A stretch of 42,095 bases of DNA, taken from positions 1 to 42,095 of the forward strand of contig JALAGF010003894.1 in assembly GCA_030167865.1 (NCBI GenBank), in the 5' to 3' direction. Origin of the DNA: Craspedostauros australis. Its lineage: Eukaryota. Numbering within the stretch: position 1 is the stretch's first letter; each line of letters opens with the position of its first letter. This document shows positions 5,311 to 32,339 of the stretch, in pieces. The position numbers and the translations under genes were made by a program. Below the pieces are notes generated by a model that was given only the letters and a program-made list of their open reading frames with translations, made no database searches and was not told the origin of the DNA.

Positions 5311-5870
5311 AAACAACTGAACGATTCATGCGTTGCGATGCGATGCAACCCAAACAAAGGGTGGTATTCGTATAGAACAATCATATCCAAACACCATATT
5401 ATAATCTATTACAGATAGTATAATTCATAACTATTGTATAATATACGTTGTATCACGTTCATGCAACAACCCTGCACCCAGAGCTCCAGGGAAGACGACA
5501 CGGTCATGTGAATCGTGCCGCCACGTGGGATTGTGGGGATGGTCTAGTTTCGTCCATGTAGAGCGATCACGCGATCTGTCGTTTGCTGTTTTGGCGACCG
5601 AATCTTCCGATCTTGTGACAAAACACATCACGCAAACGAGAGTGGACGCGTTACATCCCTGTTGCCTTTCGTTGGGCGTCCTCTGTCCACACCTACTGTA
5701 CGAGCTGCAGTGGCCACCACGCCCATCATCTGCGTCCTTCCGAGTTTGTCCTGCATCAAGGGATAAGCGGTGGCCAACATCTGCGAATACTATAATATAG
5801 GATAATACTTTGGAGTCAATACTCTACTTGTACTCCACTTCCACTCCACTTGTACCGCACGCTCGCATCG

Positions 5871-10086: not shown

Positions 10087-11442
10087 GCAGGCTGATCTGT
10101 TTCCAACTGCAAACGAAACATCCGAGCAACAGGATAACTAAAAAGCAGGTTCAAGACAGATTCAGACAATGCAGATTTGATGCGTCACCACAACATGCGT
10201 GTGGAGAAGGAGCCTTGCATGGGTTCATGCCGGTGATACAAGTGCGTGCGGGATGATTCACGGCGCTGCAAATTCTACGAACGTGTGGAGTTGACAGAAA
10301 CCCACGCCAACACCAAGTGGATGCCGCAGTTGGGGTTCGCGATTCGGTTGAGGTTGTGGTTCTTCTTGTGCTTTGTTGTGCTCCCGATCGCACCGAAGTG
10401 GTCATAGCTCATGTTCGTCCGTGTGTTCGCACGTTGCTCGTCGAATAGTCGTACTCGCAAAACACGCGCCGCTGCGTTGGTGGAGCCGGAGGTGGATTGT
10501 CGGCCAATGTTTTGTTTCCTGACGAATTCCAGCATTCGTCATCCGATGTGCCTTGTCGTGAACTGTGGCTGGTCACATAAACAGCATGCCAACTAAAAAA
10601 GTAGCCGATGAGAAATGACATTGTGGACAGGGAGGTTGAGGCATGAACGCTCTGCTTCTTTTTGTGTCATGGGAAGTTTGGGGAGGGACTGTGGACATTT
10701 GGTGAAGAGCGTCTGTGCGCACAAATTTATTTATTTATTGACTCATGACGTTCGCGCGCAACATTCAACAAATCGGCGACACAGTTGTCGGTCTGAACAC
10801 GATGCCATACGAGCGCAAAGGCAAAAGAGCCTCTTGTCGTGTGGGCGTCCGTATCCGTGTTTCGTACACTTTCGAACGGATCAGAATGACACAGATTGTC
10901 GTACGAGTACTAGGACAAGTATTGGGCGTGCGCGTGATGGAGCGCCGCTTCGTGGGTGGAATGGCGTGGTGATGCAAAACAGATTCATGGATGCTCGTTG
11001 TTACGTGCGCGCAAGAACAGACAAGGCGTGTCGAGGAAGAGAAGGAAGCGAGGTTTTCTCTTGGCGTGAATACGAGTTCTGCTGTTGTCGAGGCGTTGTT
11101 CTGCTTCACAAGATCCTGGCGGATGTTGGCTTCGTGCAGAATCAAGTGCGCACCGAGGCAGCGGAACCTCCATTTCACATGGAAGCAGTTGCGCCAAGAG
11201 AGTGTTTCGTTTCTCACATCAACACAATTTCACCTCGTCGACATCTTCTGTATCAAGTGATCGAACACATCCCAAGGACCTCCAACTTTCTCACAAACCT
11301 GACCATCGCCTTTCTGCTCACCCACATACCGGCACTGCGCCCTTGCCACGAATTGAAACAACAAGGAAGCTCAAGGTTGCACATCAAGACAGAGACAGAA
11401 AGAAAGAGGCGTTCCCAACACGATCACCTCTCAGAAACAACC

Positions 11443-11502
11443 CTCGTATCAACACTTGTATCAACACTCGTATCAACATTTGTATCAGCGCTCGTATCGA
11501 TA
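11443..11502. repeat. 12-bp minisatellite x5 (ctygtatcaaca)
   Basis: ctcgtatcaaca/cttgtatcaaca/ctcgtatcaaca/tttgtatcagcg/ctcgtatcgata. Confidence 0.9.
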
Positions 11503-12257
11503 CAACAGCAGCTGGAGCCACCGAAGCCGATGACACTCCACCAAGAAACACTTCGCTGGGATCAAGGTACATCATTTTGTCAATGCCATCAAAAGCTTGC
11601 CTATCTTATCGCTCGCCTGGTTGAATTCAATGCGGCTGTCATCACAGCGAATGCTCGGTGATCTATTTGGCGCCACAAGCACTGTGGACGTGGTTTGATA
11701 AAGTGGCCAGCCAAGGGAGGGACATGGAAGGAAAAGGCTGTGCAGACAGAGACCGACGCCACACCCATCAACTCGTTCCGTGTCCACAACTTGTGAGGTT
11801 TCGGAGGTCGGGGGGAAACACAGACAGAGAAATCACAGGGAGAGACTGGAGCACAGAGAGGAAGAGTGACAGAGCTTGCGTTTGGTATGGTACCTCCAAG
11901 CAGGTCCAGAGATCCAGACATTGCGATACCGGCTTCCGATCCTCTCTGTGAGACATGTCACCCCTGCTGCCAAGCTTTGGAAAAACTGCGCAGCCCTGTG
12001 CCGACTTCTTGAGTGTGACGAGTCTCTCTTCTCCATGCGCCATTGGAATCGTCAACATCGCAATCGCCAGGGTTACCGAGCTATCAAGCTACTACCCGAC
12101 CTTCGTTCTGTCACATTGCATGCAAAGGATAACGAAGATTGTACACCTGTGCGTGCCACTCAACCAGTAGTCTCACAAAATTTGCGCCAACACAACTTGC
12201 AATACTATCACCATCACCACCTACAATCAACAATCAACAGAATCCAACAACCACAAC

Positions 12258-13133
12258 ATGTCGCCTCTTACCATCGACACGCTTCTCAGCATGGGATACA
12301 GCCTTGACGAGGTTTCAAGCGCTTCATCCCGCCACTCCATCCAGCAAGGGCTTTCCGGATCTTCGGCTTCATCCGTTTCGTCGCACTCGACATCGTCGCC
12401 TTGCAGATCTGCATGGAGTGCTCGTTCCAGCTCACCATCGCAAAGTGAAGATGAATGCCAGCTGGCAGCATCCAACGATAGAGAGCTTCACTTTGTCCCA
12501 CCACAGCAGACCGCGGGATCCCAAACCCCATCGCCACAGCGCAGAACGAAGCGCAACTCCAACGAACTGAGCACATCGAGCAATATGCTCGATGTTTCTG
12601 ATGGTAGCATCCCAAACGCCCACGCTTGCGACACCCATCAACCGCAACAAGCCTTCCGCGGATCCACATACGATGAGGCTTCCGCATGGGCTTCAGCTCC
12701 TGGCGAATATGCCTGCCCGCACATCGCGCTCGTGCCAACTCCATTCGTGGAGACACAGGTGCATCGCATTCCCGCGGAATCTCCATTGAAGAAGCGCAGA
12801 TCCGACGGGGACGCGGGTCGATTTCGCTATCCTCTGTCGCATCCATCTGCTGCATTCGCTGTGTCAACGCATGCAATGCCATCAGCCGCAACCTATTCCC
12901 CACTGCCACAACAGCAGCTGCTCGACATCGTCTCCAGCTTCGCACGACATCCTCAGTCTCATCCGGTGCTCAACTCGGCCTCATTCTCATCGACACTGGC
13001 GGGGGCTGCAAAGACAAGCACAGCCACAAACCCACGCTCTCAATTCTCCGTGCCACGATCATCTCCAACCATGTCGACGGACAGCATCCTCATCCCGCAG
13101 GCCATTCCCATCAGGGGAGCGTGCCAGTGGTAA
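12258..13133 (+). CDS. Hypothetical Ser/Pro-rich protein with N-terminal UBA-like motif
   Basis: ATG follows an A/C-rich leader (caaccacaacATG). IDTLLSMGYSLDEV resembles UBA helix 1 plus the MGF/Y loop; basic PLKKRR is NLS-like; the rest looks disordered. The 3' end could be spliced. Confidence 0.55.
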   Translation: MSPLTIDTLLSMGYSLDEVSSASSRHSIQQGLSGSSASSVSSHSTSSPCRSAWSARSSSPSQSEDECQLAASNDRELHFVPPQQTAGSQTPSPQRRTKRNSNELSTSSNMLDVSDGSIPNAHACDTHQPQQAFRGSTYDEASAWASAPGEYACPHIALVPTPFVETQVHRIPAESPLKKRRSDGDAGRFRYPLSHPSAAFAVSTHAMPSAATYSPLPQQQLLDIVSSFARHPQSHPVLNSASFSSTLAGAAKTSTATNPRSQFSVPRSSPTMSTDSILIPQAIPIRGACQW

Positions 13134-16173: not shown

Positions 16174-19100
16174 ATGATGCGCTGGCGGACGGCAAGCACC
16201 AACGAGATGGCGCGATCCGACATGCCACAGACATCGCAGAGCCACGACATGGACGGAAGCGACGACATCACGTCCAGTGCCACTCCGGCCGATGAGACCT
16301 CAGGAAGCGGACCGGCCATGGAGAGTGCGGAAGGAGCCACCTCGAACGCCCTCTTCCACAGCCGTTTGGATTCTGATCACGAGGAGGAGGAGGATGAGCT
16401 CTTCACCGATGACGACGACGGGCTTCGCGAACGCGTTCGGCACCGGATGAAGAAACGTCAACATTCATCCTTCAGCTCAGCCGACGATCCTAACGATCCG
16501 GGGGATACGTTTCCGCTCAATATACACGACGAGGAGGGGATGGATCATTCACAACCACCGCCGGATGACGAGCATGCATCCATAGAATGGCGGCCACAAA
16601 CCTCACAGAGCACGTGCGAATTCACGCACACCATCATGAACTACAGCCAAAAGCGGGAGTCTGGTTGCAAGAAGGCAGAGTACTCCGCAACGACTGTGGA
16701 CGAGTTTGGCAATCGTTGGAGACTCATTGTTTACGTCAACGGGAACGGACGCGCGTCCAACCACCACTTGAGCCTCTTTCTGCAGGTACGAACAAAGACG
16801 AACTATCGACCTAGTGACGTCGGTGATCGACCCAGTCAATTGGATTTGCCCACGGGATGTTCCCATGGGATGTGCTCATTGAGAATCTGCTTCTGCGCAT
16901 CAACAAAGAACACAAGGGCAAGGCAAGGCAAAGTATGCTACGTCTTGGTCCACTTGTCGTCACAACCATAGCACACCGATACTGGAGAAGAACCTTCAGC
17001 ACTCCAGCATGCCCATACCTGCATGTGTGTCACCCAATGCGGTGGCTGCACTGTCTCGTTGGCAACCAGCCTTGTGCTTGCCACCACCCTGTACAACAAA
17101 GCAAATGACATCCCAAACTCACAAATTTTCCAACACCCACACACCCTTCACACATGACAATCGATTGTCGACCACACGGCCATTTTCCGATGGAAAAATC
17201 AAAACCAAACAAATTCCGGTTCGCTCACCTGTCCCTTCTCGTTTGAACTGTTGTTGCAAAACGTTGCCTGTTTGCATGTCCACCCGACTTCCTGCCTTCC
17301 TGCCCGCCTACCATCACGACTTACCTTCCACAGGTGGCAGACGCAGATGATTTGCCATTCGGTTGGAAAAAGGCCGTAAGCTACGTGCTGACATTAGAGC
17401 ATCCGTCGGGGAACAATCTCAGCTACGCAAAGAGAAATCCGGACAAGACATTCAAGCTTTGTCCCAAAGCCATTGACTGGGGATGGTCGCAATTCATCAC
17501 CAGCGATCGCATCCAGCAGGAGGGGTTCATACAGGATGATTCGTTGACCGTGAGAGCATGCGTCACCGTGAAGAGCTCTTCCGTCACCATCGACGCAGAT
17601 GACTCGGAGCTCTACTTGAAATGCGCCGTGGAAGAAGGCAACGAGGAAGGCGTGAAACTATGCTTGAATCAAGGTGCGGGGGTCAACTGCCAATTCAAGG
17701 ATGACTTGTACACTCCCCTGCACACTGCCTGCTCCTCGGCCTCCCCAACCAGCACGTCGGAGGATGGGAACATGCGCGTGCTTGAGCTCCTTCTTGAAAG
17801 AGGCGCGGATGGTAACGCATGCAACAAGTGGCGTGAGACACCGCTTCTCATCGCGGCAAACAACGGACACCGCGCTGCGGTCGAGGCCTTGTTGAAGCAC
17901 GGAGCCGATCCAAGTCTCTGCAGCGAAGCAGGATGGTCGGCACTCACGTTTGCTGCGCACAAGGTACGTGAACCCAATTCATCTCAATGACTGCCACACA
18001 TCAAATGATCACATGACCTTTGTCACGTCATCCATGAAATTCAACCGTGGAGTTCAGCCGTGGAATTCGACGAGCACACACCGGAATCACCTTGGATTGT
18101 CCACGCTCCAACCACTCACACAAATCCCTTTTCTTGTCCCATTTCATCAACTAAACTCGTATTCATCTGCATGCGATGACTCGCGACCAATTCAACGTCC
18201 ACCACAATCTCCACAGGGTTACGACGACATCGTCGCATTGTTGCTTCGTGCCGGCGCGCCCGTCAACTGCCGCGTCACTGAGGATTCCAGCACTCCGTTG
18301 CACAAGGCATGTGCGGGATCCAAGCCAGGCCATTTGACCGCGGTCAAACAGCTTCTGGACGGCCGCGCCGATGTCCATGCACTGAACAAATGGCGTGAAA
18401 CACCTCTGCTCACTGCGGCCAATCATGGCCAGGCAGGCGCCGTCGACGCATTGCTCAGGGCAGGGGCTGATCCATGCAAGTGCACAGACACTGGCTGGTC
18501 GCCACTCAGCATCGCGGCCTACAAGGGCCATGACGATGTCGTCAAGCTCCTCTTGGAGGAAGGCGCCCCGACCGAAGAAGCCGACCCAACACTGTCGGCA
18601 CTTCTCCAGGCAGCAACCAAAGGATTGCCTGGAACCGTCGAGCTCCTCCTGCAACATGGTGCTGATCACACTGTCACCACAAAGAAGGGCGACACCGCGC
18701 TCAGTATCCTCGTCGAACAAAACCTCATCGATGCAGCCGTGGAGATGGTCACCGAATACAAGGCCAGCATCCCCCGCTGTTCTCGTGATCGCAAGAAGGT
18801 CCAACGCGCGCGTTTGCTGATCAATCTGCGCATCAAGCAGATGCAAAAGGACGGCACCTACCGCAACAACGGCGGCAACATGGGCGACTACGGAGTGGAC
18901 GACGACGATGATGACGATGCGGAGACCGACCAGGAGGATGGAGCAGGATCACCACAACACGGCAAGTCAAACAATGGGCAGGGCAACAAGGGTAACAAGT
19001 CTTCGCCACGCAAAAAGAAGAAAAAGAAGGGTGGCAGGAAGAAAATGTCTGCGGAAGAGCAGGCAAAGGCCGCCGAAGAGGCCTTGTTGCTGGAGCTTGA

Positions 19101-21897
19101 CCAAGAGATGGCACAGGCCGAAAAGGTGCAGCAGGAGGCGAGCAAGAAGAGCGCCAAGAAGAAAAAGAAGAAGGAACGGGAACGACTCCAGAAGCAGAAG
19201 GAGGAGCAGGAACGCAAGGAGAAGGAAGAAAAGGAAAAGCAGGAGAAGGACAAGATCCGGAAGGCCAAAGAGGAGCGACAGCGCAAGGAGCGCGAGGAGA
19301 AGGCCAAAATCCAGCGCGAGAAGGAGATGGAGGAGCGAAATAAGGCGATGGAGGCTATGGCCAAACGTCGCGAGAAAGAGGAGAAGGAGCGCCAACGCCA
19401 GCAGCGCCTCGAAAAGCAACGCAAGGCCGAGCAACAGAAGGTTCAGCAGGAACAGGAGCAACAAAAGCGGCAACGCGAGCAAGAGCGTGAGAGAGAACAG
19501 CAAAAGGCTCAGACTGCGCTTGTCGCCAAGCAAAAGGCACAACAGCAAACTACCAAGGGTAGCACCAAGAAGGTTGGCAATGCCGCGAAGTCAGCTGTGC
19601 GCCCTGATACCATGGCTGCAACCGCACCATCATCTGCTGCTTCAGCTTCATCTGTGACGGCCGCACCGACGGCTTCTAAGCCTATCACTGGAAAGAACCG
19701 AGGGTGGGAGACCAAAGTCAAACCTGCAGCGCCGCAGACCAATGCTACCAGAGCACCTGAAGTTGCAAAGTCTGCGGCCCCAGCTGTGGTGCCAGTGCCT
19801 GTTGTTGCGCCTATGTCGCACTCGACCAGTCTCGGCGCGAATGTGACAACTTCTGGTATGCCTCCGCACACCACGCAACCGACTATGCCCATGTCACGAT
19901 CGATTTCGGACTTCCAGCCAGGTAACGATGCGATGTCCGCCCACAGCGGTAGCATCGCACCACAGCTGATGGGGTTCAACCCTGCGCCAGCCAAAATCGA
20001 CCTGCCGTCCAATCCGTTCGGAGAGATGCAGTCGTTGCTCACTCCGTCGAAGCAACAGAACCATCACAACGTCTTCGGAATGACATCAGGAGGGAGCAAC
20101 TCCGCTGACAGGCAGCTCATGAACGGCCTTTCGGGAAGTTCATTGCTGTCTCATGTGCCTGCTCCAGATGTTTCAGAACATCCGGCTTTAGCGCTGTTCC
20201 GCGAGGAAAAAATCTCTGCCTTGATCAGCAGATTCACTGTTGCACCGAATCAGATCTCCATGGATCCTCTTCATGTGATTGATGCGCCAACTGCCAAGCG
20301 CGTGATCTACCGTTGGATAATCCGTGCAGCGCACGACAACCATCCATCTCTGGACTGCGTCATCCCCAGTTGGATCGACTTCACCTACCTCACGACTTTC
20401 TTCCAGCGGCAGTTCATTGCCGAGAATCACAAGGCATCTGGTCCCGGCGCATCGATGCGCAATGGCATGGTTGGCATGGAGGCCTTGAAAGAGGCTGGTG
20501 TCGCCATGGCAACGCTGTGCCAAAACCTTGCAAAGGATGTGGCCGAGTTTAGGCGCCAGTTGGACTCGCAGGTTCCGCCGGACTGGTCCGACAATGGCAT
20601 CGGGATGACTGCGCGAAGTGCCATGCAGCAAGGGAGCTCGCACGTTTTCATCAGCTGGTCGAACAGATCGCAGGTGGACCTCGCGAGGGATGATTACGAC
20701 AGGCTGAGCCAGCAGTTCGTCGGACGCCCCAATCGCATGCTTTCCGCACTGTTCCATCTGAAGGTCCGGCACAACACCGTCGGGCTGATTGTGGATGGAA
20801 CCGAGATGGACTCCCAACTGTCGGTGTCGTTCCGACAGTCAGCCATTGCCGAGGCCAGCGCGAGGGTTGAGCTTTGGTCCAATCCCTTGACTGTGCTTGG
20901 GGACAACACATTGTGGGGGCAATTCGCGGACATCGATTGCCTGTTCGGTGCTGCTCCGCCCTTCGGTAGCGGCGAAGGGAGCAGCGACGAGAGCCTGTCC
21001 CGCATCGGTGGTTCGGTCGTCGTCATGCTCCCAATGGACAGCATGGTCGCTTCCGTTTACGTCAACCGCATGGTAACACTGTTGCAAGCAGCAGACAATG
21101 ACCGCGTGCCCCTCTCGTTCGTCGCCATTCTCAGAAACGAGTGCTTCCACGACCGCAGCAGCGCCCCGATGCCCACGGATTTGCGCACGCTCGACCCACG
21201 CCTGCATGATCAGTGCCAGCACTACCTCCGTCGTGCCGAGACGCTCGTTGCCGGGCAACACACCTTCGCGAAAAAGGACGACTCTACCGTCGTGAGCGAA
21301 ACAGGCAGCCTGCTGGTCGTGGTGCAGAACGGAGCCGCTGGGCACCGATTTGACGTGTCTGACATGGCCATGACTAAGCTCGTCGCAGCGCTGTCTCTGC
21401 CAACCCAACAGCTCGTGGCTCCAATGAGCTTCAGCGCTGCCGCGCCAGAAACAAATGACTTTGGTCGTCCGCGGGCGTCATCGTCTGACTTCTTGGACAC
21501 GTTCGCGCCAATGCCCAATCAGGGTCTGAACCCCGGAGCCACCGAGTTTGGTGGGGTCGGTAACATCGGAGGTATCCCACTGTCTTCGGCATTCTCTTCT
21601 GCTCCTTCACCAGCCGTGAGTCACGACATCCTCGGTTCGACGTCAAAGGCGGCATCGCGCCGACCAGCAAATTCGAGCCGCAGACTGTTCGATCTCGTGG
21701 ATGACACCGATGACAACATCAATGATGTTGATGTCGTCTCTGGGATGTTGAACAACCTCAACGTCGATCTCTTCCAGAGCAGCGGCGTGAGCGGTCAAGA
21801 CGTCGACATCGAGGCCATCAGCCTGATGGGAATTGGCAATACATCGGCAGGGGGGAGCCGATTGCAGCGCAATGGCTCCCACGGCCGATTTGGCTAA
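16174..21897 (+). CDS. MATH domain + ankyrin repeats + coiled coil + PCIF1/CAPAM-like methyltransferase-fold protein (~1640 aa; exons 16174-16785, 17334-17963, 18217-21897)
   Basis: GT-AG introns (CAG|gtacga...cag|GTG; AAG|gtacgt...cag|GGT) join in frame to give LSLFLQ|VADADD and AAHK|GYDDIV. MATH: RWRLIVYVNGNG..HLSLFL..DWGWSQFI. Ankyrin: TPLH/TPLL..AA..GH repeats. E/K/Q/R-rich coiled coil, then a PCIF1-like C-terminal domain. Confidence 0.88.
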
Positions 21898-22811
21898 ATG
21901 CTCGTATGCCAGCCAAAAACCGTCTCAACATGACAACAACAATGGAACTACTCGTGCACGAGCTTGGTACAGTGACACACCATGCTCTGCAATACACTAG
22001 ACAAGAAGCAAACCAACAACAACTACCTCGACAGCAACACGAACTGTCTCAGCAAGGTTATGACTGGAATGCAAAACAACCCAACGCACCACAAACAAAC
22101 ACAGAACCAAATTCACACGCGCAAACAGAAAACACTCATCACGCCTCTTATGCCCATCTTTGCCAACATCATGACCCGAAGTAAACGCCGGATTCAACAG
22201 CATGCAGATTACGGAATTCCCCGACCCGCGCGCACGCAACACAATCGATCTTCTCCGACATTGGTGGCAATAATGATCATATTAGTACACACATCTTCTT
22301 GCATTTTGTGCTGTGCCTTTTGTTCTGTTGGGCTCTTGCGTTCGTGCAACCACTACAATTGCTTCAGCGGGGCCCATTTCTGATGGACAACTGCAAGCAC
22401 CAGCATACTGACTTGCGAGGCAAGAGTATTAGAGGAGAACAAGTACGGCGCACCTCAGCATCGAGGGTTCGTCCCGGGGTCCGCTTCTTGTTTCGATCTT
22501 GGTGCATCCGCAACAGGCCCGTGCCCGCAGGGGGAGAGTCAGTTTTGAACATGACATGACGTGAGGTTGGAAACAAGATGGACAGCGACACTTAGAAAGG
22601 ACTACTCTCTATGGTAGAGAGAATACGTTGCTCTACTTCATGATTGCATCCTGCTGGCACGGGTGTATCGCTGTCTCACTCTGTCAGCCTAGCCGCAAAC
22701 TGGAGAGAAACAAGATAACTATGAACGCAAACGAGAACCATTCGTTAACGCTTTGATGAGAGTACTATACTCGTAGTCCTACATATGTTGCCGCTCGACG
22801 ATGCTTTGAAC

Positions 22812-24212
22812 TTAGATTTCAAGCGTGTCTACCGCCGTGTTTGCTTCGGTCACGGCAGAAACCTCCTCCTCGTTCACGACACCCGGGTGCTTGGCCAAGT
22901 ACTCGCAGAGCTCGGCAAAGAGGATCTTGCCACCACCGTTCTTGTCGATGGCTGCGAAGAGTTCTTCGATAGAATCGACGGTGAACAGGCGTGCGTTCTG
23001 CTGCATCTCCTCGAGATGGATTCGTCTGTCGCTATCCGTGTCGATGGCATCGAAGAAGGCCCAGAGGTTGTTGTAGTACACGATGTACTGCAGGAAATCC
23101 ATGAATTCGGACTTGCCGACGAAGCCGTCGCCGGTTGTGTCGCTGGATTTGTAGGCCCGCATGATGGCTGCCTTGTTGTCGAGGTTGGGGTACATGGTGA
23201 CGATGGCCTTGTCAAGTTCTGCCAAAGACAATTTGCCAGACGCGTTCTCATCGAGCTTGTCGAATTGCTCCATCGCCTTGCTCTTTTCCGGCAATGCGAT
23301 CTTTGCGACGGCCTGGGGCTTGGGAGCCGCCTTTTTGACGTTTTTCGTCTTGTTGGCAGCCTTTGCAGTATCATCGTTGACATTGGCGTCGTCGTTGTCG
23401 TCCTGCAGGATGTCGTGTAGGTCATCCATGGCGGTGTCGTGCCATTTTTGGTCGGCGAGGTAGTGGCACAGCTCCGCAAAGAGGATCATTCCCTTGCCAT
23501 CAATGTCGATGGCGGCGAACATGGCATCCGCATCGTCGTCACCGGAGCCGATGGCCTTGGCGAATTTGGGAGCAACCTTATGGAACTCATCCTTGGAGAT
23601 GCGCCTGTCGCCATCCTTGTCGAGGGCCGAGAATATGGTCCACAGATTGTTGTAGTAGACGATGAACTGCAGGAAGGCGGGGAACTCGTCACGGCAGACG
23701 AAGCCGTCACCTGACGCATCGGTGGATTTGTAGGCTCGCATGAGCGCCGGCTTGTTGTTGAGGTCGGGGTAGACCTGCACGATGCCCTTGTCCAGCTCCG
23801 CGAGGCTGAGTTTGCCAGAAGCATTGTCGTCCATGCGATCAAAGAGCTCCAGCGGATGTTCCGGGAACGTGAGGCGCGCGGCCTTTTCGACTCGGGCCTG
23901 CGAATGCGCGGGCGGTTTCTTGGACGCGGTCGTTCGCTTCTTGGGCGACGTGGCGACGCGTGTTGGGGCTAGTCGTCTCGAGGGCGTTGTGGTTTGCTTC
24001 CTGGGCGATGGCGAGTACGCAGCGTGGGCACGGTGCCGGTTGGTGCTGGCGGCGTCTCGCGACGCCACGGAGGGCAAAGGCGACGTCATGCGAGACGAGG
24101 CAGTCAGTGGCCTGAGGGGCATCGGCTGCTTTCCCTTCCACACATGGTACTGTTGGTTGGTGGACGCGGTGGTCTGCTTGCGGTGCAGCCGGTGCAAAGG
24201 ATCTTCGGCCAT
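22812..24212 (-). CDS. EF-hand calcium-binding protein with two tandem calflagin (FCaBP)-like modules
   Basis: Duplicated unit F..MDDNASGKLSLAELDK...LNNKPALMRAYK..D.SGDGFV...EF..FLQ.IVYYNNLW..F..LD.DGDRRI...E...F.AID..G.G.ILFAELC.YLA gives 8 EF-hand loops. The N-terminus is basic and low-complexity. Confidence 0.85.
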   Translation of the reverse strand: MAEDPLHRLHRKQTTASTNQQYHVWKGKQPMPLRPLTASSRMTSPLPSVASRDAASTNRHRAHAAYSPSPRKQTTTPSRRLAPTRVATSPKKRTTASKKPPAHSQARVEKAARLTFPEHPLELFDRMDDNASGKLSLAELDKGIVQVYPDLNNKPALMRAYKSTDASGDGFVCRDEFPAFLQFIVYYNNLWTIFSALDKDGDRRISKDEFHKVAPKFAKAIGSGDDDADAMFAAIDIDGKGMILFAELCHYLADQKWHDTAMDDLHDILQDDNDDANVNDDTAKAANKTKNVKKAAPKPQAVAKIALPEKSKAMEQFDKLDENASGKLSLAELDKAIVTMYPNLDNKAAIMRAYKSSDTTGDGFVGKSEFMDFLQYIVYYNNLWAFFDAIDTDSDRRIHLEEMQQNARLFTVDSIEELFAAIDKNGGGKILFAELCEYLAKHPGVVNEEEVSAVTEANTAVDTLEI

Positions 24213-25191
24213 CTTGTCGATCGGCTGTCCTCTCCACTATTCTATGCTGATGCGAGTATTCCACAATGCTTTGGAGGTTTATGCGGCTTCGTTTCTTGCC
24301 GTGGATGTTCCTGCTGTGTGTCAAACTGCTGGTGTGTAGTCGTATAATATTCTTGACCGTTGTACTTACAGTGTTGTTCGCTCTCTCGCTCTCTTGTTGG
24401 ATTGCTGGATTGCCTTTGGATTGCCTTCGGATGTCAATCCCACGTGTCTCCGTTGGGATGGAAGTCGTCAGGAAGGATCAACGACACAACCAAACAGCGG
24501 CGTGCGGTGATGGGATACAACAGCGTGGTATGGTGCGTATGGTACGTGTGGTACAGTGATGCCTTCGTCGGCAAAGTGGTTGTCTTGCGTAGTTGTATAG
24601 TATAGCGGCACACTTGCAAGATCCTCTCTGCTTCGAATTTCAATCGTGGTGGATCAATCAGATGTAGCGGAATGCAATGCAACACGATACTCGTGGCCGT
24701 ATTCGCACAATCCGGAGTCAAGCGCAACTCAACTGTCTCTCTGAATGACGGAGTGAGGCGGGATGGGGTGGTTGGGCACCTTCCGTGTGGGAATGGTCGG
24801 TTGCTTGTGGGGTGTGTGCATCTGTTGTGATGGATACGGGACGCGCGGGAAAGGCGTTGACACGGCGTCGGAAGCACACCAGATACAGTTCCGATTCGCA
24901 ATTCAACATGCAGAAGACGAGTATCGTTGCGCAGTCCCGTTTTCGCGCTGGTTGGATGCTCCCGCCAACCACGCAACGAACCAAGAGCTCGCGGGCTTCT
25001 TGCCTCCAATCATAGACATCTGCACGAAGGAGTGCGATAACGATACGCAACATTATGCCACCAGAGAAGTGCCGCTCTTGAGAGAGATCAATGCGCATGC
25101 GGTTGCACTCGTACTCTCGAGAATAGGATGTATTGTCTCTCTACTATAACAGGTAGTGCAAGTTTTTTGTTACACCATTGTTCACATCGTA

Positions 25192-28100
25192 TCAGCCTGC
25201 GACGACGTGCACACGAAGTTTGGAAGTGCTTGCGTCATGGCCACCTTCGCCCGTGCGTCTGGAATCATCTCCAATTCCATTGTCGTTATTAGTGTTGTCG
25301 TCGTCGTCGTTGTCGAAAGGGACATGAGTGTTCCACCAACCAGAAACCTGGGCTTCCACTTCGTAGAGACCTGGAATGATTCCGTAGTCTCCGAGCGATT
25401 CGTGCCACACAGCTACATCCTTCCATGCTATATCCACCTGCATCATGTGGCTTTCATTCGCTTTTAGCATCGGTGCCGTCTCAAACGCACATAGCCTGCG
25501 TTGCGGTTGACGTGCTTCGGATGCAATGAGGGATGCTGACGACGTTGATGCCGACCCCAGCAATCGGATGGGCACTGATGCAGCCCCCTCCACATCAGGC
25601 TTATCTTGCGGCAAGTCAAACTCGATCAACTTCCAAAATAGAAGCACGGACTGACCACCAGGCATGGGTCCCAGATTCTTCACCGTCAGTGACAGCGACA
25701 ACGGCGAGGACCAATCGCGCACGTCAACATGCAACCTGCCATCGCCACCGTGAAGTGCGACGCCCCAGTCGCTGTAGCTCAGGCCATGCCCGAATGGGAA
25801 TTCCACGGGGCCCTTGTAGTACAGATAGGTGCGACCGACGCCGACGTTCAAGCCCATTTCGGTCAATGGGATTTGGTTCACGTAGTTGGGTGGATAGACA
25901 GTGGCCGCGAGACGCCCTGTGGGATTGTAGTCGCCGTACAGTACCGATGCCAGCGCCCGTGAAGCCGCTTGGCCGCCGTAGCTTGCCGACACAATCGCGG
26001 GGGCTTTCTGCAGCAGTTCTTCGCCCAATGACACGGTTCCGCCATGAAACAGGACGAGGATAGTTCTGGGATTGCCCAGATCCAAAATACCATTGGCAAG
26101 CTTGGATTGCAGGCCGGGCAGGGTGGTGTTGTACCGATCACGACCTTCTCGTTCCACGGATCGGTCCAGACCAAGTGCGAGCACGATGGTGTCCGCGGTT
26201 GCGGCAAGTTCCATCGCTTCCTTCATCAGTTGGGCTTCGTCAGCCTCCGGAAGATCGCCAATCATCGAGCATCCCATTGCGCCAATCGTCTCTGCATTTG
26301 GATCGGCAGCAGCCAGACCTTGCAGCGGCGTTTCGACACAATCTACGTCGAATCCATGAAGCGGAGGCGAGCTCTCGGATGTTTCCGGATCATCCGTGTC
26401 CCATGGTGTTTGTTGATCATCTCGTTCGTTGAGATCAGAATGTCCGCAGCGTTCTCCATAATATGCGCTCAGCAATGCGGCCGTGGAATGCGTGTGTGGT
26501 CCGATGACGGCAACCCTTGGTTTGGCAGCATTTGGCGTCTCCAGGAGGGATGCTCGCTTGAGAGGCAGCGTATCACCATCATTCTTCAACAGGATGATGC
26601 TCTGCAACGCAGCCTCGTAGGCGAGCTTTCGATGTTCAGGTGAATCGATCGCATCCCAATCCGCATCGGTATCGCTTGCAGGCTCCTCGGCTTCTTCGAT
26701 CCTGGTAGCGGTGCTTGGGCCAACCGTCCTGTCTTTGTCGTTATCGAACAACCCCAGCTCCATCTGCACACGGACCATGCGACGGAACGATTGCCGAATC
26801 TGATCTTCCTTCACCATGCCCTGCTGGAATGCCTCGTGCAGACCTTTGGGATAGTGCGATCCATCGCCGCAATTCACATCGGTGGTTGCATTCAGCGCTT
26901 TCGCCGACGCTTCCGCAGCATCTTTTGCGGCCTTGTGGCCATTGTCGATGTCGACCAGCGCGCCACAATCAGACACGACGTATCCACCGAAGTTCCACTC
27001 GTCTCGCAGGACATCCTTGAGCAGCCAGTTGTTGGAACACGATGGTTCGCCATTGACAGCATTGTAGGAGCACATGACTCCGCGGGAATTGCCGGTTTGG
27101 ACACATTCTCGGAAAGGAACGAAGTAGTAGTTGTAGAGATCATACTTTGTGACTTGCGCATCGAAGTCGTGCCGTGTGATCCCGTTCCAATTCTCCAGCG
27201 AGTTGGCCACAAAGTGCTTGCATCCTGCTGCGATTTGAATGTGCGGAGTGGACCGAGGAGAGGTGCGCTGGCTGGCGCTGCTGCTAGAGGGTATGGATTG
27301 GAGTCCGTTGACGTATGCGACGGCGTACGCACCAGTCATGTGCGGGTCTTCGCCGGGGACTGTGATTGTATCATGCACAAGAAAAGAAACACGCAGAGGT
27401 GGGTGAAGCGGGTGGAGGGGGGAATACAATGACGCAGAGGCAGGGTGAGCAAGCGTAACGTTGAGGACGTGCTAGATCTCGAACCAGCGATGCGCCTTCC
27501 ACGTTCTTTGTGCATATGGCCCGGATTGCATCGTTAATTGAGCACACTACTCCACACACAGACAACGTACCTTCCTGGTTGCGTCCCCATCGAGGATCGC
27601 GTTGTAAATTGATGGTTGGAGACCAGAATGTGAGTCCGTCACCGATCGGAATTTGGCTTGGAGTTGTGCTGTGCTGCGGTCGCAAATTGAGCAACGCTCG
27701 TCCTTCCCTCCCGATCGCTGCAGCAACCTCACGCCAAAGTGTTTTATTGAAGGAGCTCCCGAGACCGGATGGTGCCGGGAAGCTGGTGGGGCACCTGAAC
27801 TGCTTCTGCTTCTGCTGATACTGCCGATTGCTTGGGATGCTGAGCCCTGGCTGGTAGCCACGAAGGAGGGTCTGCGGATTCATGCTTGGCTGGCTGTCGA
27901 AGGGGGCAGTAGTCGTACGTCGTGACTGTCCATCGCTTTGCTCGTCTGAGACATCCACAAAGCGCTGATCCAGATCCGCCCTCGACACACATTGGACCAT
28001 CGCACCGTGCAGACCTTCCGACCACCATTGGTAAGGCGGGATATGCAAAGGTGGATACTCCGCAGCGACGTGAGACATCATGTCGATCTGTTGCTGCGTG

Positions 28101-28306
28101 GGAATCCGGTTGACGTAATCTTCCACGCGGTCATCGAGCGGCAGGTCGAGCTGGCAGAATGGAAGATGCACGACATCGTCCTGGGTGCACACCTCATCCC
28201 ATATCCGGACGCAGCGGCATGGACGGAGCCCGGAGCCGAGGATCAGAAGCCATGGAAGCAGAAGGGAAAGCCTGAACTTCGATGGCTGCACAGGAAGGTG
28301 TTTCAT
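25192..28306 (-). CDS. Glycoside hydrolase family 3 (beta-xylosidase/arabinofuranosidase-like), secreted; exons 28306-27571 and 27359-25192
   Basis: Signal-like N-terminus, QWWSEGLHG, and FWSPTINLQRDPRWGRNQE|VPGEDP joined across a 211-bp GT-AG intron (27570-27360). Also CKHFVAN, MCSYNAVNG, the nucleophile motif GYVVSDCGA, EREGRDR, FPFGHGLSY and an Fn3-like tail. Confidence 0.92.
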
Positions 28307-29050
28307 CACAGAATGCGATTCGCCGTGGATGGCTGTTGCGGTGGGAGACGATCTTCTTTGAACCTTGATCGGCGATGGGCAATGGCAGCATGCAATGGCA
28401 GTATGAAATGGCAGCATGCAAAGGTATGTAGGGCGCTCCCTCTCCCTCTCTCTCTCTCTGTGTATGTATGTGTCCTTGTATCGGTCTGCAGATGTGGTGG
28501 TGCCTGTTGTTGCCCTTCGGTGAGCGTGTTGATGTCGAACGAATGATCGCCAAGTTTTGCTTCGGTCCCGAACCAAGAAGACAACATCGTATCTTACTCC
28601 CGGGACTTCTTGAAACACGATCGAACAGTATCTCGTTGTTGTTGCAGTCACGTTAGTCGAAGTGAGATCATATCGACTCATGTGACCATTTCTGCGCCCA
28701 TCGCAATCTGTTGCCAGATGGGCACAAAGCAACACGAACGTTTGTGCGAAATTTCAAAGATCGGGGTCACAGTGCCCCTCTGTCTCCCTCTCTTTTGTGT
28801 TGTGCGTCGCAGCCGAGGCGCGAGAACATCGAAGCCAAAGCACCGAAGGGGAGGCAGCAAGGATCACAAACAAATCATACGACGAGAGAAGCAAGAACAA
28901 CAACAGGTGACAACAACAGCAACAGCAGACCCATCGATGGCAATAATGTTCGTTGAATCTGGTTCATAATCCTCTCCAGATTTGTTCAATTGCAGGCACG
29001 CCATCAAGCAAGCAGGGCGCGTATACTCCATCGCACAAGACCATACCAAT

Positions 29051-29110
29051 ACGTGCAGACATACGTACGTGCAGACATACGTGCATACATACGTACGCAC
29101 ATACAGACGT
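29051..29110. repeat. Degenerate ACATACGT/TACGTGCAG short tandem repeat in the divergent GH3-MORC intergenic region
   Basis: acgtgcagacatacgtacgtgcagacatacgtgcatacatacgtacgcacatacagacgt. Confidence 0.7.
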
Positions 29111-29246
29111 GCGAGTACGAGAACAGCCAAAAGTGAAGCCATCGCAAGTACAAAGGCCCGCAGAAGTGTGCTCGTGGGGCGTCTGTGTTGGACTATCACA
29201 AGCACTCCTCAGAGTCGAGCAATCTAGCGAGCCAGACGGTGGAACG

Positions 29247-32200
29247 ATGAACGACCTGACGGACATGGACACCTTCCATTCAGCCAGCGACGGCATGCTC
29301 TTGGATCCGGAGCAGGCGCTTGACGGCGAAGGCCAATACAACGATCCAGATGATTATCTCAATTACAATGGGACTGATGCGATGCAACCTGATTCTTCGC
29401 AGTTTGCCAAGGCCACGGTGGAAGGCGCTGGCATGTGGAAGTCCTGGACGCGCAGTTTCAACAAACCGATCATGGCCATGCTCGATCTCTTCGACAATGC
29501 CATCGATGCCTGCCTGCAGGAGCAGGATCTGCAGTCCAGCAAGTCTCGCTACGCTCAAAGTCAAACGCCGATCATCACCGTGCAGAGCGACCTCAGCGTC
29601 CACAAACTGACAGATGCAAAAGCACACAGGAATGGGCGAAATGGCAACGGCGGGGAGGCGGCAGCATCTGACTCCGGCAATCCAACAGGGACAAGCGACA
29701 GAACCAAGGCGAGGCCCACGGGAGAAGGCGTGCTCATGATGAACTCATCCGTCCATCCCATCCCGCCCATGGCGCAGATCCTCACAGTCTACCGTTCCTC
29801 CAAGCAGAACGACTCAGAGATTGGAGAAAATGGGGTCGGCATCAAGCAGGCATGTGCGCATCTCAGCGATGTCTCCATCATTTGCACCAAATCAAGCTCC
29901 ACTAAGTTCGGCCTGGGTGTTCTGTCGAAGGACCTGCAAAAGAAGGAACCCAATCTGCCATCCGTCCAGCTGCCGGACGGCTCCATGTCGCAGAGCATGC
30001 CCTCTGCCACCAAGGTCTTGACGGATTTGGCAGCGCGCCATCCTCAAACCTTTGGTTCAGCATTTCGGTCCTACGGTTCGTCCGAACAAACCACGAGCAA
30101 CGGTGAAGCAGTGCGGCTCGGCGCGGAGAAGGTCGCCAAGGTCTTCGAGTGCATCACGCAGCGCGATGAATGGAAGGACCATCCACATGTCTTCGTCCTC
30201 ATCATGTGCAACCTGAGACATCAAGGACAGGTCGCCGATACATTTGAGATTCGTGAAAGCACAGGTGGCGCTAACGCAGATAAAGACGCAGTCTCCGAGG
30301 TAAGCCTGATCCAAACAAAGATCAGCGCTTCTGCTCGTCTCCTCGAAGAGCTGGAGAGGGAGTTGCCAATGCGGTACCTGCATGTTCCTCTCCATTTCCA
30401 TATCCAGGTGCAGTGGGATCGAATCGAGTTTCAGTACTGGGAACGGAGACTCGTCGAGCTCACCAGATTCGACGTGATGTACTCCAAAATCACGCCCTTC
30501 CAAAAGATGCAGAATTGGTGGCATTTGGAACAAGTGCTGGCCGACATCAAGGAAGGCGGGGACGCCAACGGCAACGGCAAACAACTTGAGTCTCGCGCAT
30601 CACTCGCAGCGGCCAATGCAAAAAAGGCCGACGAGGATGCCGCTGTTCCTCAACTTGGAAATGGGATGAAAGATGGTATTCAAGACCTTGCAATGCAGGA
30701 CTCGGATGGTGCAATAATGGCAACCCCAGAGCCCACCATCAAGCAACGACCTCTCAAGAAGATGGCCAGAAAGACACCATCGCGAAGATGCAGTCCGAGA
30801 GCACCTGTGCCTGTGGCCAAGTATCACCAAGAGGAGGCCATCGAAGCACCGTCGGATCCTCCGAAGGTAATCAAGAAAGCCGCTTCACCAAAACGAGCGC
30901 CCAGAGCGCCGTTGAAGCCGATGCCACCACCAAATCCCAAAACGATCTCCCAGATGCGCATTTGGTGCGGATTCGACCCCATTCGCGCGTCCTCCAAGAC
31001 GTCCGCCGCGTCCATGTATTTGTACAGCCGCACGTCCGGCCGGTTGATCAAGTATTCGAAGGACTGTCGCGCGGAGCTCGGTCTCGTCACCAGCGGCTCC
31101 GAATTCGCGCAGGGGCTGACCGTCATTATTGACGACCTGCACGGGACACTGCCGCTCAACCCAACGAAGCAGGATGTCGCATTTGGGCTGGAGGCTCACG
31201 GCGAAACGCACGAGACCAACATGCAGGCCTGGGTGGGCGGGTGCACCCACACGTACTGGAGGTTCTACGCGGACAGACTTGGAACGAAGACGAACGTTGC
31301 CAAGGCGGTCTGTCAACAGCTTCCGAAGATCAAATCGCTGGTGGAAAGGTCGACTACGATGAAAACGCGGAAATCAGGCCGGATGACGGTGTTTCCGCAG
31401 CTTTCGACAGGATCGTTCCTGCGCTTCGACTTGCTGGGTTGGAATCAAAAGCTGGGAGTGATCCGATGTCCGAAGAGCAAGCGGGATCGTCTCATTCAAA
31501 AGGATGGAAAGGACTGCGCTGCGCGCGTCGATTTTGAGAAGGCATTACTTTCGGATGATGTCGGCAACGGTGATGAAGATGGTGACTATGATTCCTCATC
31601 CGAAGCTCCCAGGACTCCGAAGAAGAGGAAGTCGACCCCGCGGTCGAGGAAGAGAAAGGCTGCTAACAAGAAGCAAGCCGCAGCCATCCCCCCTGACATT
31701 GTGGACCTTCTCAATGATAATGGAAATCTCGAAATGGATGTATTCGCTGACGACACCGGGAGATCGTCTGGCAGGACACAGGCCCAGTGGAAGTCGCAAC
31801 TCCAACAGCGCAGCGATGCCAACAAGGAACTGCAGGCGACCATCCGAGAACGCGACGAACGCATCAAGGCTCTCGAAGAAGAGATGAAGGAGCACAGCGC
31901 CAAGAAGGACGCGACGCTGGCAAAGGCCAGGGAATACCGTCGCAAATACAAGGAAGAGCAGAGGTACTGCCAGGAGATGCTGTCGACGGAGAGACAGACG
32001 GCGGAACGATGCCGCGGATTGCATCAGGAGAACATGCGGCTGATGGACAAGGTGGACGAGCTGAAACGGATCTGCCGCAAGAACAAGATCAACATACGCG
32101 GTGATCTCAGTTCGGACGATGATGACTTGTACGACAACGACGAGGGCATCACGAGAGCGAAGAGAAGCACATCATCTGGCGCAAACACAAACCGCAAAAG

Positions 32201-32339
32201 GAGGGCGACTCGATCGAGGAGCAGGTCCAGCAGCAGGCGCGCATCGTCACAGCCAGTGCAGAATGCTCCTTCCTTCAGCGATGACGACTCTGACGACGAC
32301 CACGACGACGACGACGATGATGATGATTCTGTGCTTTGA
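29247..32339 (+). CDS. Divergent MORC-like GHKL ATPase with S5-like domain and C-terminal coiled coil (1030 aa)
   Basis: N-box AMLDLFDNAIDA, G2 box IGENGVGIKQACAHL, FGLGVLS, YL..P, MORC S5-type GLTVIIDD...LPLNPTKQD..F, NLS-like KKRKS..RKRK, coiled coil ~31780-32080, acidic tail. ATG 29247 taken as the first Met in the open frame. Confidence 0.72.
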   Translation: MNDLTDMDTFHSASDGMLLDPEQALDGEGQYNDPDDYLNYNGTDAMQPDSSQFAKATVEGAGMWKSWTRSFNKPIMAMLDLFDNAIDACLQEQDLQSSKSRYAQSQTPIITVQSDLSVHKLTDAKAHRNGRNGNGGEAAASDSGNPTGTSDRTKARPTGEGVLMMNSSVHPIPPMAQILTVYRSSKQNDSEIGENGVGIKQACAHLSDVSIICTKSSSTKFGLGVLSKDLQKKEPNLPSVQLPDGSMSQSMPSATKVLTDLAARHPQTFGSAFRSYGSSEQTTSNGEAVRLGAEKVAKVFECITQRDEWKDHPHVFVLIMCNLRHQGQVADTFEIRESTGGANADKDAVSEVSLIQTKISASARLLEELERELPMRYLHVPLHFHIQVQWDRIEFQYWERRLVELTRFDVMYSKITPFQKMQNWWHLEQVLADIKEGGDANGNGKQLESRASLAAANAKKADEDAAVPQLGNGMKDGIQDLAMQDSDGAIMATPEPTIKQRPLKKMARKTPSRRCSPRAPVPVAKYHQEEAIEAPSDPPKVIKKAASPKRAPRAPLKPMPPPNPKTISQMRIWCGFDPIRASSKTSAASMYLYSRTSGRLIKYSKDCRAELGLVTSGSEFAQGLTVIIDDLHGTLPLNPTKQDVAFGLEAHGETHETNMQAWVGGCTHTYWRFYADRLGTKTNVAKAVCQQLPKIKSLVERSTTMKTRKSGRMTVFPQLSTGSFLRFDLLGWNQKLGVIRCPKSKRDRLIQKDGKDCAARVDFEKALLSDDVGNGDEDGDYDSSSEAPRTPKKRKSTPRSRKRKAANKKQAAAIPPDIVDLLNDNGNLEMDVFADDTGRSSGRTQAQWKSQLQQRSDANKELQATIRERDERIKALEEEMKEHSAKKDATLAKAREYRRKYKEEQRYCQEMLSTERQTAERCRGLHQENMRLMDKVDELKRICRKNKINIRGDLSSDDDDLYDNDEGITRAKRSTSSGANTNRKRRATRSRSRSSSRRASSQPVQNAPSFSDDDSDDDHDDDDDDDDSVL

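Follow-up and report, generated by a model that had tools for sequence, protein, structure and literature searches.

A gene on contig JALAGF010003894.1 of Craspedostauros australis (assembly GCA_030167865.1) raises the question of whether a diatom carries a relative of PCIF1/CAPAM, the methyltransferase that writes N6,2'-O-dimethyladenosine (m6Am) at the mRNA cap, and of what such a relative could still do. The whole stretch of DNA that was analysed, positions 1 to 42,095 of the forward strand (42,095 nucleotides), is called the window below. The original prediction, made from the letters alone, placed an apparently inactive PCIF1/CAPAM domain, fused to MATH and ankyrin repeats, at 20280-21355. 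This domain is real, and its folded extent is wider: the segment 20197-21396 on the + strand is a complete PCIF1/CAPAM core, containing both the helical and the methyltransferase domains. We estimate a probability of about 0.75 that this core is a descendant of PCIF1 which is catalytically dead throughout its family and most likely serves, as a pseudo-methyltransferase, to bind without catalysing, within a single diatom protein of 1640 amino acids.

Sequence and fold of the PCIF1/CAPAM-like core

When the window domain was used as a single query in phmmer against the PDB, CAPAM was not found and two unrelated weak matches (E 0.49 and 0.56) were returned; hence, the CAPAM match needs a profile. 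Relatives of the domain were collected by database search, which gave 29 proteins (E 1e-172 to 6e-64) and a further 77 cluster representatives, 52 of them at E<=1e-30. The Pfam family PF12237 was matched by all 19 of the aligned relatives at E<=0.01, with a best E of 5.1e-18. The name of this Pfam model, PCIF1_WW, is a misnomer, and the model covers the methyltransferase domain (PMC7641849). The original prediction had proposed a comparison with it; this succeeded for the relatives and stayed sub-threshold for the window copy, as detailed below. When the profile of the 19 relatives was searched against the PDB at E<=1, only two sequences were matched, zebrafish CAPAM (2.8e-12) and human CAPAM (3.1e-08). 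Furthermore, a hidden Markov model of 74 diatom domains matched every member of a canonical comparison set of 27 PCIF1-like proteins (E 1.9e-40 to 5.5e-08), and 21 of these 27, aligned as one profile, matched CAPAM with an E of 2.3e-93. At least eight proteins were among the matches listed for the canonical PCIF1 profile, and the organism names among the canonical cluster matches were Polykrikos and Leptophrys only. The identity of the window core to CAPAM is 13-17%.

All seven pairs of PCIF1 motifs that had been aligned by eye in the original prediction were reproduced by the HMMER alignments. With the family profile against 6irv/6irx and with the joint alignment, we observed the pairing of ELWSNPL with ECFASPL, FADIDCLFGA with FPDTDGYFGS, GGSVVVMLPM with GSFEANPPF, PLSFVAIL with PLSFIVFI, AGQHTF with AFEHEY, and VVQN with FLQN. 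The remaining pair, YRW...D.VIP with NRW...DPLLP, was obtained from the match of the canonical profile to CAPAM and from the joint alignment.

The fold was examined with an AlphaFold2 model of 20197-21414 built from 81 aligned sequences, which had a mean predicted local distance difference test score (pLDDT) of 94.6 and a predicted template modelling score of 0.92. Foldseek placed the six CAPAM entries at ranks 1-6, with E values from 2e-15 to 1.2e-13; the match at rank 7 was at 5e-4. VIA-align gave Z scores of 23.9-28.7 to the CAPAM entries over 338-343 residues with a root-mean-square deviation of 4.0-4.2 A, and the next fold had a Z of 7.8. Model residues 1-400 were aligned to residues 204-668 of human CAPAM with a Z of 28; accordingly, the helical and the Rossmann domains are both matched, beyond the segment that Pfam covers. 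Taken together, the homology to PCIF1/CAPAM is borne out by the family profile and by the fold.

The model was also compared with two further structure collections. In the ESM Atlas, all 30 of the nearest clusters carried PF12237 and were mostly from Nucleocytoviricota. In BFVD, the nine best matches came from large DNA viruses, for the most part giant ones, and all were PCIF1-like proteins; the viruses included Pithovirus, Hokovirus, CroV, Bodo saltans virus, Tetraselmis virus, and Salmon gill poxvirus.

Motif IV and an apparently remodelled pocket

All N6-methyladenosine (m6A) RNA methyltransferases with a characterised structure share a D/N-P-P-F/W/Y motif (PMC8287941). In the HMMER alignments, GSFEANPPF of human and zebrafish CAPAM is aligned with GGSV.V.PPL of the family, which reads GGSVVVMLPM in the window copy. 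The replacement of NPPF by MLPM lies at 21025-21036, exactly where the original prediction had located it, and in the model MLPM directly follows strand E272-277, where motif IV belongs. Among the 81 aligned family members, 80 have residues at this site. In all 80, N and D are missing from the first position of the motif and from the whole of positions 271-279; the first position is occupied by L, M, V, F, I, T, or Y. Position three is P in 74/80, and position four is usually L or P. In the canonical set, the four positions are N (24/27), P (27/27), P (26/27), and F or Y (25/27).

Human PCIF1 is inactivated by N553A alone, by APPA, or by SPPG (PMC9178792, 10.1101/485862, 10.1101/484931). Since the N/D and the aromatic residue are both lost in the family and these mutants of human PCIF1 are dead, we strongly infer that the window domain and its whole family would be unable to N6-methylate adenine. 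Judged from the alignment, the catalytic residues have been lost family-wide in the diatoms and not just in the window copy. The pseudo-enzyme presumed in the original prediction is thus what the absence of both the catalytic Asn and the Phe points to.

Subsequently, the 36 columns with a conservation of 80% or more among the canonical proteins were compared with the 74 diatom domains. The diatoms keep R191, Y192, L216, E225, P230, F243, D245, D247, F250, G251, F256, G272, P279, L296, F308, H355, and N378. F250 is invariant in 74/74 diatom domains and in the 81-row alignment, in which D247, G251, S307, F308, R335, Q377, and N378 are also invariant or nearly so. Family-wide changes from the canonical state were observed at Q to D205, F to W227, A to S228, S to D/N229, N to S/T232, S to G241, S to G252, S to P255, N to hydrophobic 277, and F to L/P280. 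Around the presumed cofactor loop, A-S-P-L-N has become S-D/N-P-F/L-S/T, and F-G-S-x-G-S has become F-G-G-x-x-P. The new states are conserved within the diatoms (W227 in 54, S228 in 54, D229 in 51, G241 in 65, and G252 in 68 of the 74), so that the pocket looks remodelled rather than decayed. The fold of the core and this remodelled, family-conserved pocket are under purifying selection.

The host protein, its gene, and its family

The gene that carries the core lies on the + strand and, with the upstream DNA included in the reading, has three exons and a spliced product of 1640 amino acids. The order of the modules is MATH, ankyrin repeats (about ten), a K/E-rich segment, a disordered linker, the PCIF1-like core, and finally a conserved acidic tail that is predicted to be disordered; about 1070 residues, with the MATH domain and the ankyrin repeats, precede the core. 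The features are as follows (coordinates, strand, description, and basis).

16174-16785, +, exon 1, with the start codon, an acidic N-terminus of low complexity, and the N-terminal half of MATH from about 16606 (open reading frame, sequence, Pfam)
16786-17333, +, intron 1 (GTACGA...CCACAG), phase 0, interrupting the MATH domain (splice sites read in the sequence)
17334-17963, +, exon 2, with the C-terminal half of MATH, which ends at about 17576, followed by the first ankyrin repeats (Pfam, translation)
17964-18216, +, intron 2 (GTACGT...CCACAG), phase 0, within an ankyrin repeat (splice sites read in the sequence)
18217-18834, +, start of exon 3: remaining ankyrin repeats and a helical cap (Pfam, regional identity)
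18922-19554, +, K/E/R-rich, highly charged segment with poly-K runs (composition)
19555-20196, +, S/T/P/A/G/Q-rich linker, presumably disordered, with an RGWE motif at 19699-19710 (composition)
20197-20796, +, helical domain of the PCIF1/CAPAM-like core, including YRW at 20308-20316 (AlphaFold2 model, VIA alignment)
20797-21396, +, Rossmann-fold methyltransferase-like domain of the core (profile alignments, AlphaFold2 model)
20869-20892, +, ELWSNPLT, motif-I region of the Rossmann domain (alignment)
20923-20952, +, FADIDCLFGA in the Rossmann domain (alignment)
21025-21036, +, MLPM in place of the catalytic NPPF, motif IV (alignment to 6irv/6irx)
21397-21681, +, disordered, poorly conserved linker from core to tail (pLDDT 33-54, about 22% identity)
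21682-21897, +, acidic/hydrophobic conserved C-terminal tail and stop codon (alignment columns, model, translation)

The Rossmann domain also holds conserved PLSF, GQH.F, and QN motifs. The frame that hosts the core extends from stop to stop over 1333 codons (17896-21897, +), and the reading frame of exon 3 is uninterrupted from 18217 to 21897. The start of exon 1, MMRW, agrees with an M..RW start kept in 13 full-length homologues. Both introns are of the GT-AG type; the GT donor of intron 1 is at 16786, and the junction FLQ|VADADD is gapless in the alignment to P0002, a protein from a Staurosira transcriptome. Removal of intron 2 joins AAHK|GYDDIVAL, which is a canonical ankyrin repeat, and this junction is covered by the same alignment. 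When residues 2-1640 of the spliced model were aligned to residues 1-1722 of P0002, one high-scoring segment pair with 67% identity was obtained; a single coding sequence therefore holds both the MATH/ankyrin and the PCIF1-like parts. The fusion claimed in the original prediction is upheld by this single alignment, the continuous reading frame, the GT-AG introns, and the long homologues described below.

The MATH_2 family (PF22486, cut-off 32 bits) matched the exon-1 half with 38.6 bits (profile positions 2-61 of 136) and the exon-2 half with 35 bits (50-136 of 136). When a 57-residue MATH piece was compared with the PDB, the best match was TRAF2 with an E of 0.31, which is not significant. 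The ankyrin matches were above the cut-offs in exon 3 (Ank, 5.1e-24 and 83.5 bits; Ank_2, 4.9e-23 and 81.9 bits), and exon 2 gave Ank_4 at 4.4e-19 (68.6 bits) and Ank at 2.2e-17. The WW domain, which the original prediction had not found evident, was indeed absent from the Pfam scan of four translated stretches of the gene region at E<=1 and from 14 long homologues at E<=0.001. No BTB, RING, or USP domain was found in the Pfam scans of the gene region or of the 14 long homologues, and no reverse transcriptase, RNase H, or recombinase domain was among the Pfam matches of the gene or of the long homologues.

The original prediction also described MATH, ankyrin repeats, and a long coiled coil ahead of the domain. 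The first two and a K/E-rich stretch were found, while the coiled coil is a reading of the composition. In the charged segment (residues 650-860, approximately), 50-residue bins over residues 651-850 contain 14-20 lysines plus arginines and 5-16 acidic residues (D plus E). This segment may form a coiled coil or a single alpha-helix, possibly with nuclear localisation signals; its poly-lysine runs suggest nuclear localisation. The linker that follows spans residues 860-1074, approximately. RGWE is nearly invariant within this poorly conserved linker and corresponds to R912, W914, and E915 of P0002.

The tail (21682-21894) reads RLFDLVDD...VSGML.NL...DVDIEAISLMGI...GRFG. Its columns R496 to G545 are invariant or nearly so; R496 and L500 are invariant and DIEAISL is nearly invariant. 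In a model of 566 residues, the core had a pLDDT above 90, whereas residues 410-566 were at 33-54 without secondary structure. This model speaks against a docking of the tail onto the core, and such a docking was dropped from consideration. The tail is probably a linear binding motif, since it is conserved yet predicted to be disordered. We presume a likeness between its segment VSGML.NL.V.LF and a leucine-rich export signal.

All members of the family with an organism name are diatoms, both centric and pennate: Staurosira, Cylindrotheca fusiformis, Detonula confervacea, Nitzschia inconspicua (KAG7356494.1), Thalassiosira oceanica (EJK45188.1, partial), and Cyclotella cf. meneghiniana (KAL7486264.1). 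Their public labels are 'ankyrin repeat domain protein' for KAG7356494.1 and 'hypothetical protein' for KAL7486264.1. The original prediction had suggested a survey of diatoms for the same architecture. MATH and ankyrin repeats were found by Pfam in 13 of the 14 long homologues (9/9 and 4/5 in two sets); two of these 13 have a truncated N-terminus with just the MATH end, and the fourteenth is also truncated N-terminally. Where the whole MATH_2 domain is present, it scored 59.8-88.7 bits (E 1e-16 to 1e-25). The complete order of MATH, ankyrin repeats, and PCIF1-like core was also found in MMETSP open reading frames labelled 'type:complete'. Many gene models of the family are about 1100 residues long and have no MATH exons, probably because introns split the MATH domain, as in this gene. 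In an unrooted tree of the 74 diatom and 27 canonical domains, the diatoms form one side of a branch with an SH-aLRT support of 100; being unrooted, the tree indicates the separation of the diatom domains and no polarity.

The mean pairwise identity among 13 full-length members, which include the centric Detonula and named pennate diatoms, was 86% for MATH and also 86% for the ankyrin block, 59% for the C-terminal tail (against about 22% in the flanking linker), 40% for the PCIF1-like core, and 21-31% for the charged segment, the linkers, and the N-terminus. Over the MATH-ankyrin block (16606-16785, 17334-17963, and 18217-18834), the minimum identity was 78-79%, with hundreds of invariant columns. 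This block is far more constrained than the PCIF1-like core, which suggests a very conserved binding partner. The constraint on the core and on the tail is moderate.

The window also contains other open reading frames, and no connection between them and the PCIF1-like gene is evident. On the + strand, 1-5307 (more than 1769 amino acids, open at the window start) has a RanBP2-type zinc finger and 5796-7058 encodes a Methyltransf_28 protein; on the - strand, 22815-24236 encodes a multi-EF-hand protein and 25195-27471 a glycoside hydrolase family 3 protein (all by Pfam). The long frames 10612-11658, 12171-13130, 27374-28753, and 28947-32336 had no Pfam match. A public run of uncertain kind (6% of words) gave two contigs, 21587-21813 and 21835-22100, without differences; they cover the 3' end of the gene and the downstream sequence, and neither the rest of the gene nor the introns.

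Candidate roles of the core and comparison with known systems

If the core is a binding module, it would bind a ligand, which may be an RNA 5' end, S-adenosylmethionine (SAM) or S-adenosylhomocysteine (SAH), or a protein. The scaffold would then join this ligand to the partners of the MATH domain, the ankyrin groove, and the C-terminal motif. Because the core is predicted to be catalytically dead, the function of the diatom protein would be independent of m6Am writing.

One specific form of this is that the core is a sensor of SAM/SAH that binds the cofactor only, or a protein platform with no small ligand, serving as a regulated interaction surface. The cofactor-region residues are conserved, and outside the core the protein is made up of peptide-binding modules plus a disordered tail that is conserved. 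However, several residues near the presumed cofactor loop that do not vary in canonical PCIF1 have changed (A to S, S to D/N, N to S/T, and S to G), and on present evidence this explanation is indistinguishable from that of a cap reader. We hold it tentatively, as rather unlikely.

Alternatively, the dead core would recognise the 7-methylguanosine (m7G) cap or the 5' end of mRNA, whether nascent or mature, and tether it to the partners of MATH and the ankyrin repeats. The helical domain, which aids cap recognition in CAPAM (PMC8287941), is fully present in the core, an acidic residue follows motif IV in 80/80 homologues, and the naturally inactive Pcif1 of the fly retains a gene-regulatory role (PMC10158991). 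The m7G cap is contacted in human CAPAM by R235, E558, and W588 (PMC13290413), and these contacts were mapped onto the family with an offset of 164 between chain index and residue number. The R235 equivalent, in YRW at 20308-20316, is occupied by R in 61 of the 74 diatom domains and by K in another 8. The W588 column, in a loop of uncertain alignment, is E/D/Q in 70/74 and is followed by a two-residue insertion C-F (F 59, L 15); the F or L at 317 (74/74) might stand in for the stacking Trp. The E558 column, likewise in an uncertain loop alignment, is N/S in 67/74, with D or E as the preceding residue in 74/74. Since only the R235 equivalent is retained among the three mapped contacts, the family has preserved part of the canonical m7G pocket at most. 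There is also no WW domain to recruit the protein to RNA polymerase II. The net charge of the core is slightly negative (-7 in the window copy, family median -5), which is uninformative. We consider a cap reader unlikely.

Another alternative is that the core is still an enzyme and that the remodelled pocket (E.WSDPFS, FGG..PF,.PPL[DE]) methylates another atom or substrate without the Asn. E225, D245, D247, F250, and G251 of the cofactor region are kept, and W227, S228, D229, G241, and G252 look like a new fixed state and not like decay. In contrast, N/D at motif IV is found in 0/80 homologues, the N-to-A mutant of human PCIF1 is dead (PMC9178792), D/N-P-P-F/W/Y occurs in all the characterised m6A methyltransferases reviewed (PMC8287941), and the first motif position varies among seven residues, unlike a catalytic residue. 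This makes enzymatic activity very unlikely.

Finally, the idea that the MATH/ankyrin and PCIF1-like parts are separate genes, or that the core is a functionless remnant, finds some room in the fact that the one public run listed for the gene covers 21587-22100 and may be DNA, but it can hardly be correct in view of the unbroken frame 18217-21897, the single segment pair to the transcript-derived P0002, the same architecture in complete MMETSP frames, and the invariant columns and confident fold conserved across centric and pennate diatoms.

Several observations weigh against the pseudo-methyltransferase that we prefer. The window copy by itself matched PF12237 with an E of 0.002 and 17.9-18.3 bits, under the gathering score of 31.1. 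The inactivity of the core is a prediction from its sequence, and with the cofactor-region residues that are kept (E225, D245, D247, F250, and G251) the core may bind SAM and might, in principle, carry out some non-canonical transfer. Two of the three mapped cap contacts, W588 and E558, are not conserved, within loops whose alignment is uncertain. Moreover, the support for the gene model comes from transcript-derived frames of relatives and not from RNA of Craspedostauros australis.

PCIF1 is regarded as an ancient eukaryotic enzyme (PMC4738411), and the study of its non-catalytic roles is just beginning (PMC10158991, PMC12896973). A major algal lineage with a fixed dead PCIF1 core, in a scaffold with an almost invariant MATH-ankyrin block, would be a natural separation-of-function system. 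In diatoms, a writer of cap m6Am may have become a reader or sensor of the 5' cap or of SAM/SAH that has no catalytic activity and is coupled through MATH, ankyrin repeats, and tail to partners, such as those of turnover or nuclear RNA processing; in this full form, the proposal is speculative and quite unlikely. The practical value lies in an annotation correction for a protein found in every named diatom among the matches, and in a testable lead for diatom RNA biology; no long-standing question is answered by this finding alone.

The closest known system is vertebrate PCIF1/CAPAM (6IRV, 6IRW, 6IRX, 6IRY, 6IRZ, and 6IS0), which has the same helical and Rossmann core over about 340 residues (Z 24-29) and shares the motifs E..SP., F.D.D..FG, PLSF, H.[YF], and QN and the R235-type arginine. 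Unlike CAPAM, the diatom core has MLPM (.PPL or.LPL in the family) for NPPF, without the catalytic Asn, and in the alignment it is without the conserved Trp and Glu cap contacts. The N-terminal WW domain of CAPAM, a binder of RNA polymerase II's C-terminal domain phosphorylated on Ser5, is absent from the diatom protein, which instead adds MATH and ankyrin repeats N-terminally and a conserved C-terminal tail.

The Pcif1 of Drosophila has lost its methyltransferase activity, and the protein is retained with non-catalytic gene-regulatory roles (PMC10158991). It keeps the WW domain and the Asn, with a change from NPPF to NPPH only (PMC9479742, PMC10158991), whereas N and F are both gone from the diatom family, which has no WW domain and differs in its domain context. 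If the dead core were also the only PCIF1 homologue of diatoms, m6Am writing would have been lost and the PCIF1 scaffold kept, in parallel to Drosophila. The methyltransferase-like domain of the DIRS1 retrotransposon is PCIF1-derived and was judged inactive from substitutions of catalytic and substrate-binding residues (PMC4738411). It is part of a transposon polyprotein, whereas the diatom core belongs to an intron-bearing cellular gene that looks single-copy. This setting, with no reverse transcriptase, RNase H, or recombinase domain among the Pfam matches, speaks against placing the diatom core in the DIRS1 group.

In a haptophyte and in choanoflagellates, DCD-CAPAM-like fusions have a CAPAM-like domain with other modules replacing WW (PMC7641849). 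Their partners are DCD, eTudor, and zinc fingers, whereas the diatom partners are MATH and ankyrin repeats. Most sequences related to these fusions keep NPPF. One protein of 742 amino acids (P0103) carries a RanBP2 zinc finger and a DCD domain together with PF12237, and HPPA stands at the place of NPPF; judged by this motif, it is apparently another inactive CAPAM-like fusion of the haptophyte kind described in PMC7641849.

A more distant parallel is METTL14, which belongs to the circularly permuted MT-A70 clade and is an obligate heterodimer with its active paralogue METTL3, whereas the diatom core belongs to another clade and has no known active partner. Motif IV of METTL14 reads EPPL. With an N6-adenine methyltransferase fold and a degenerate motif IV, it is kept as a binding and scaffolding subunit (PMC4738411, PMC8287941).

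The last group compared is that of the ubiquitin-system adaptors TRAF, SPOP, and USP7, with which the diatom protein has MATH in common. MATH domains bind short peptide motifs in these proteins. In contrast to them, the diatom protein has no RING, BTB, or USP domain in the Pfam scans. The link to ubiquitin-adaptor functions made in the original prediction is pure conjecture, and a role in ubiquitination is not supported, because no E3, BTB, or deubiquitinase domain is present.

The architecture of MATH, ankyrin repeats, and PCIF1-like core was unfamiliar in the original prediction as well, and neither it nor a diatom PCIF1 family was found described in the main texts of the literature searched, the Supporting Information of PMC4738411 being a place where architectures may be listed. 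The words 'ankyrin' and 'stramenopile' are absent from the accessible text of the Boulias preprint and of PMC7641849, as is 'MATH' from that of the preprint; in the accessible text of PMC4738411, 'ankyrin' concerns RAMA-domain proteins. Since the catalytic motif and the WW domain are both absent, the diatom protein does not qualify as a CAPAM enzyme; by descent, it belongs to the PCIF1 clade.

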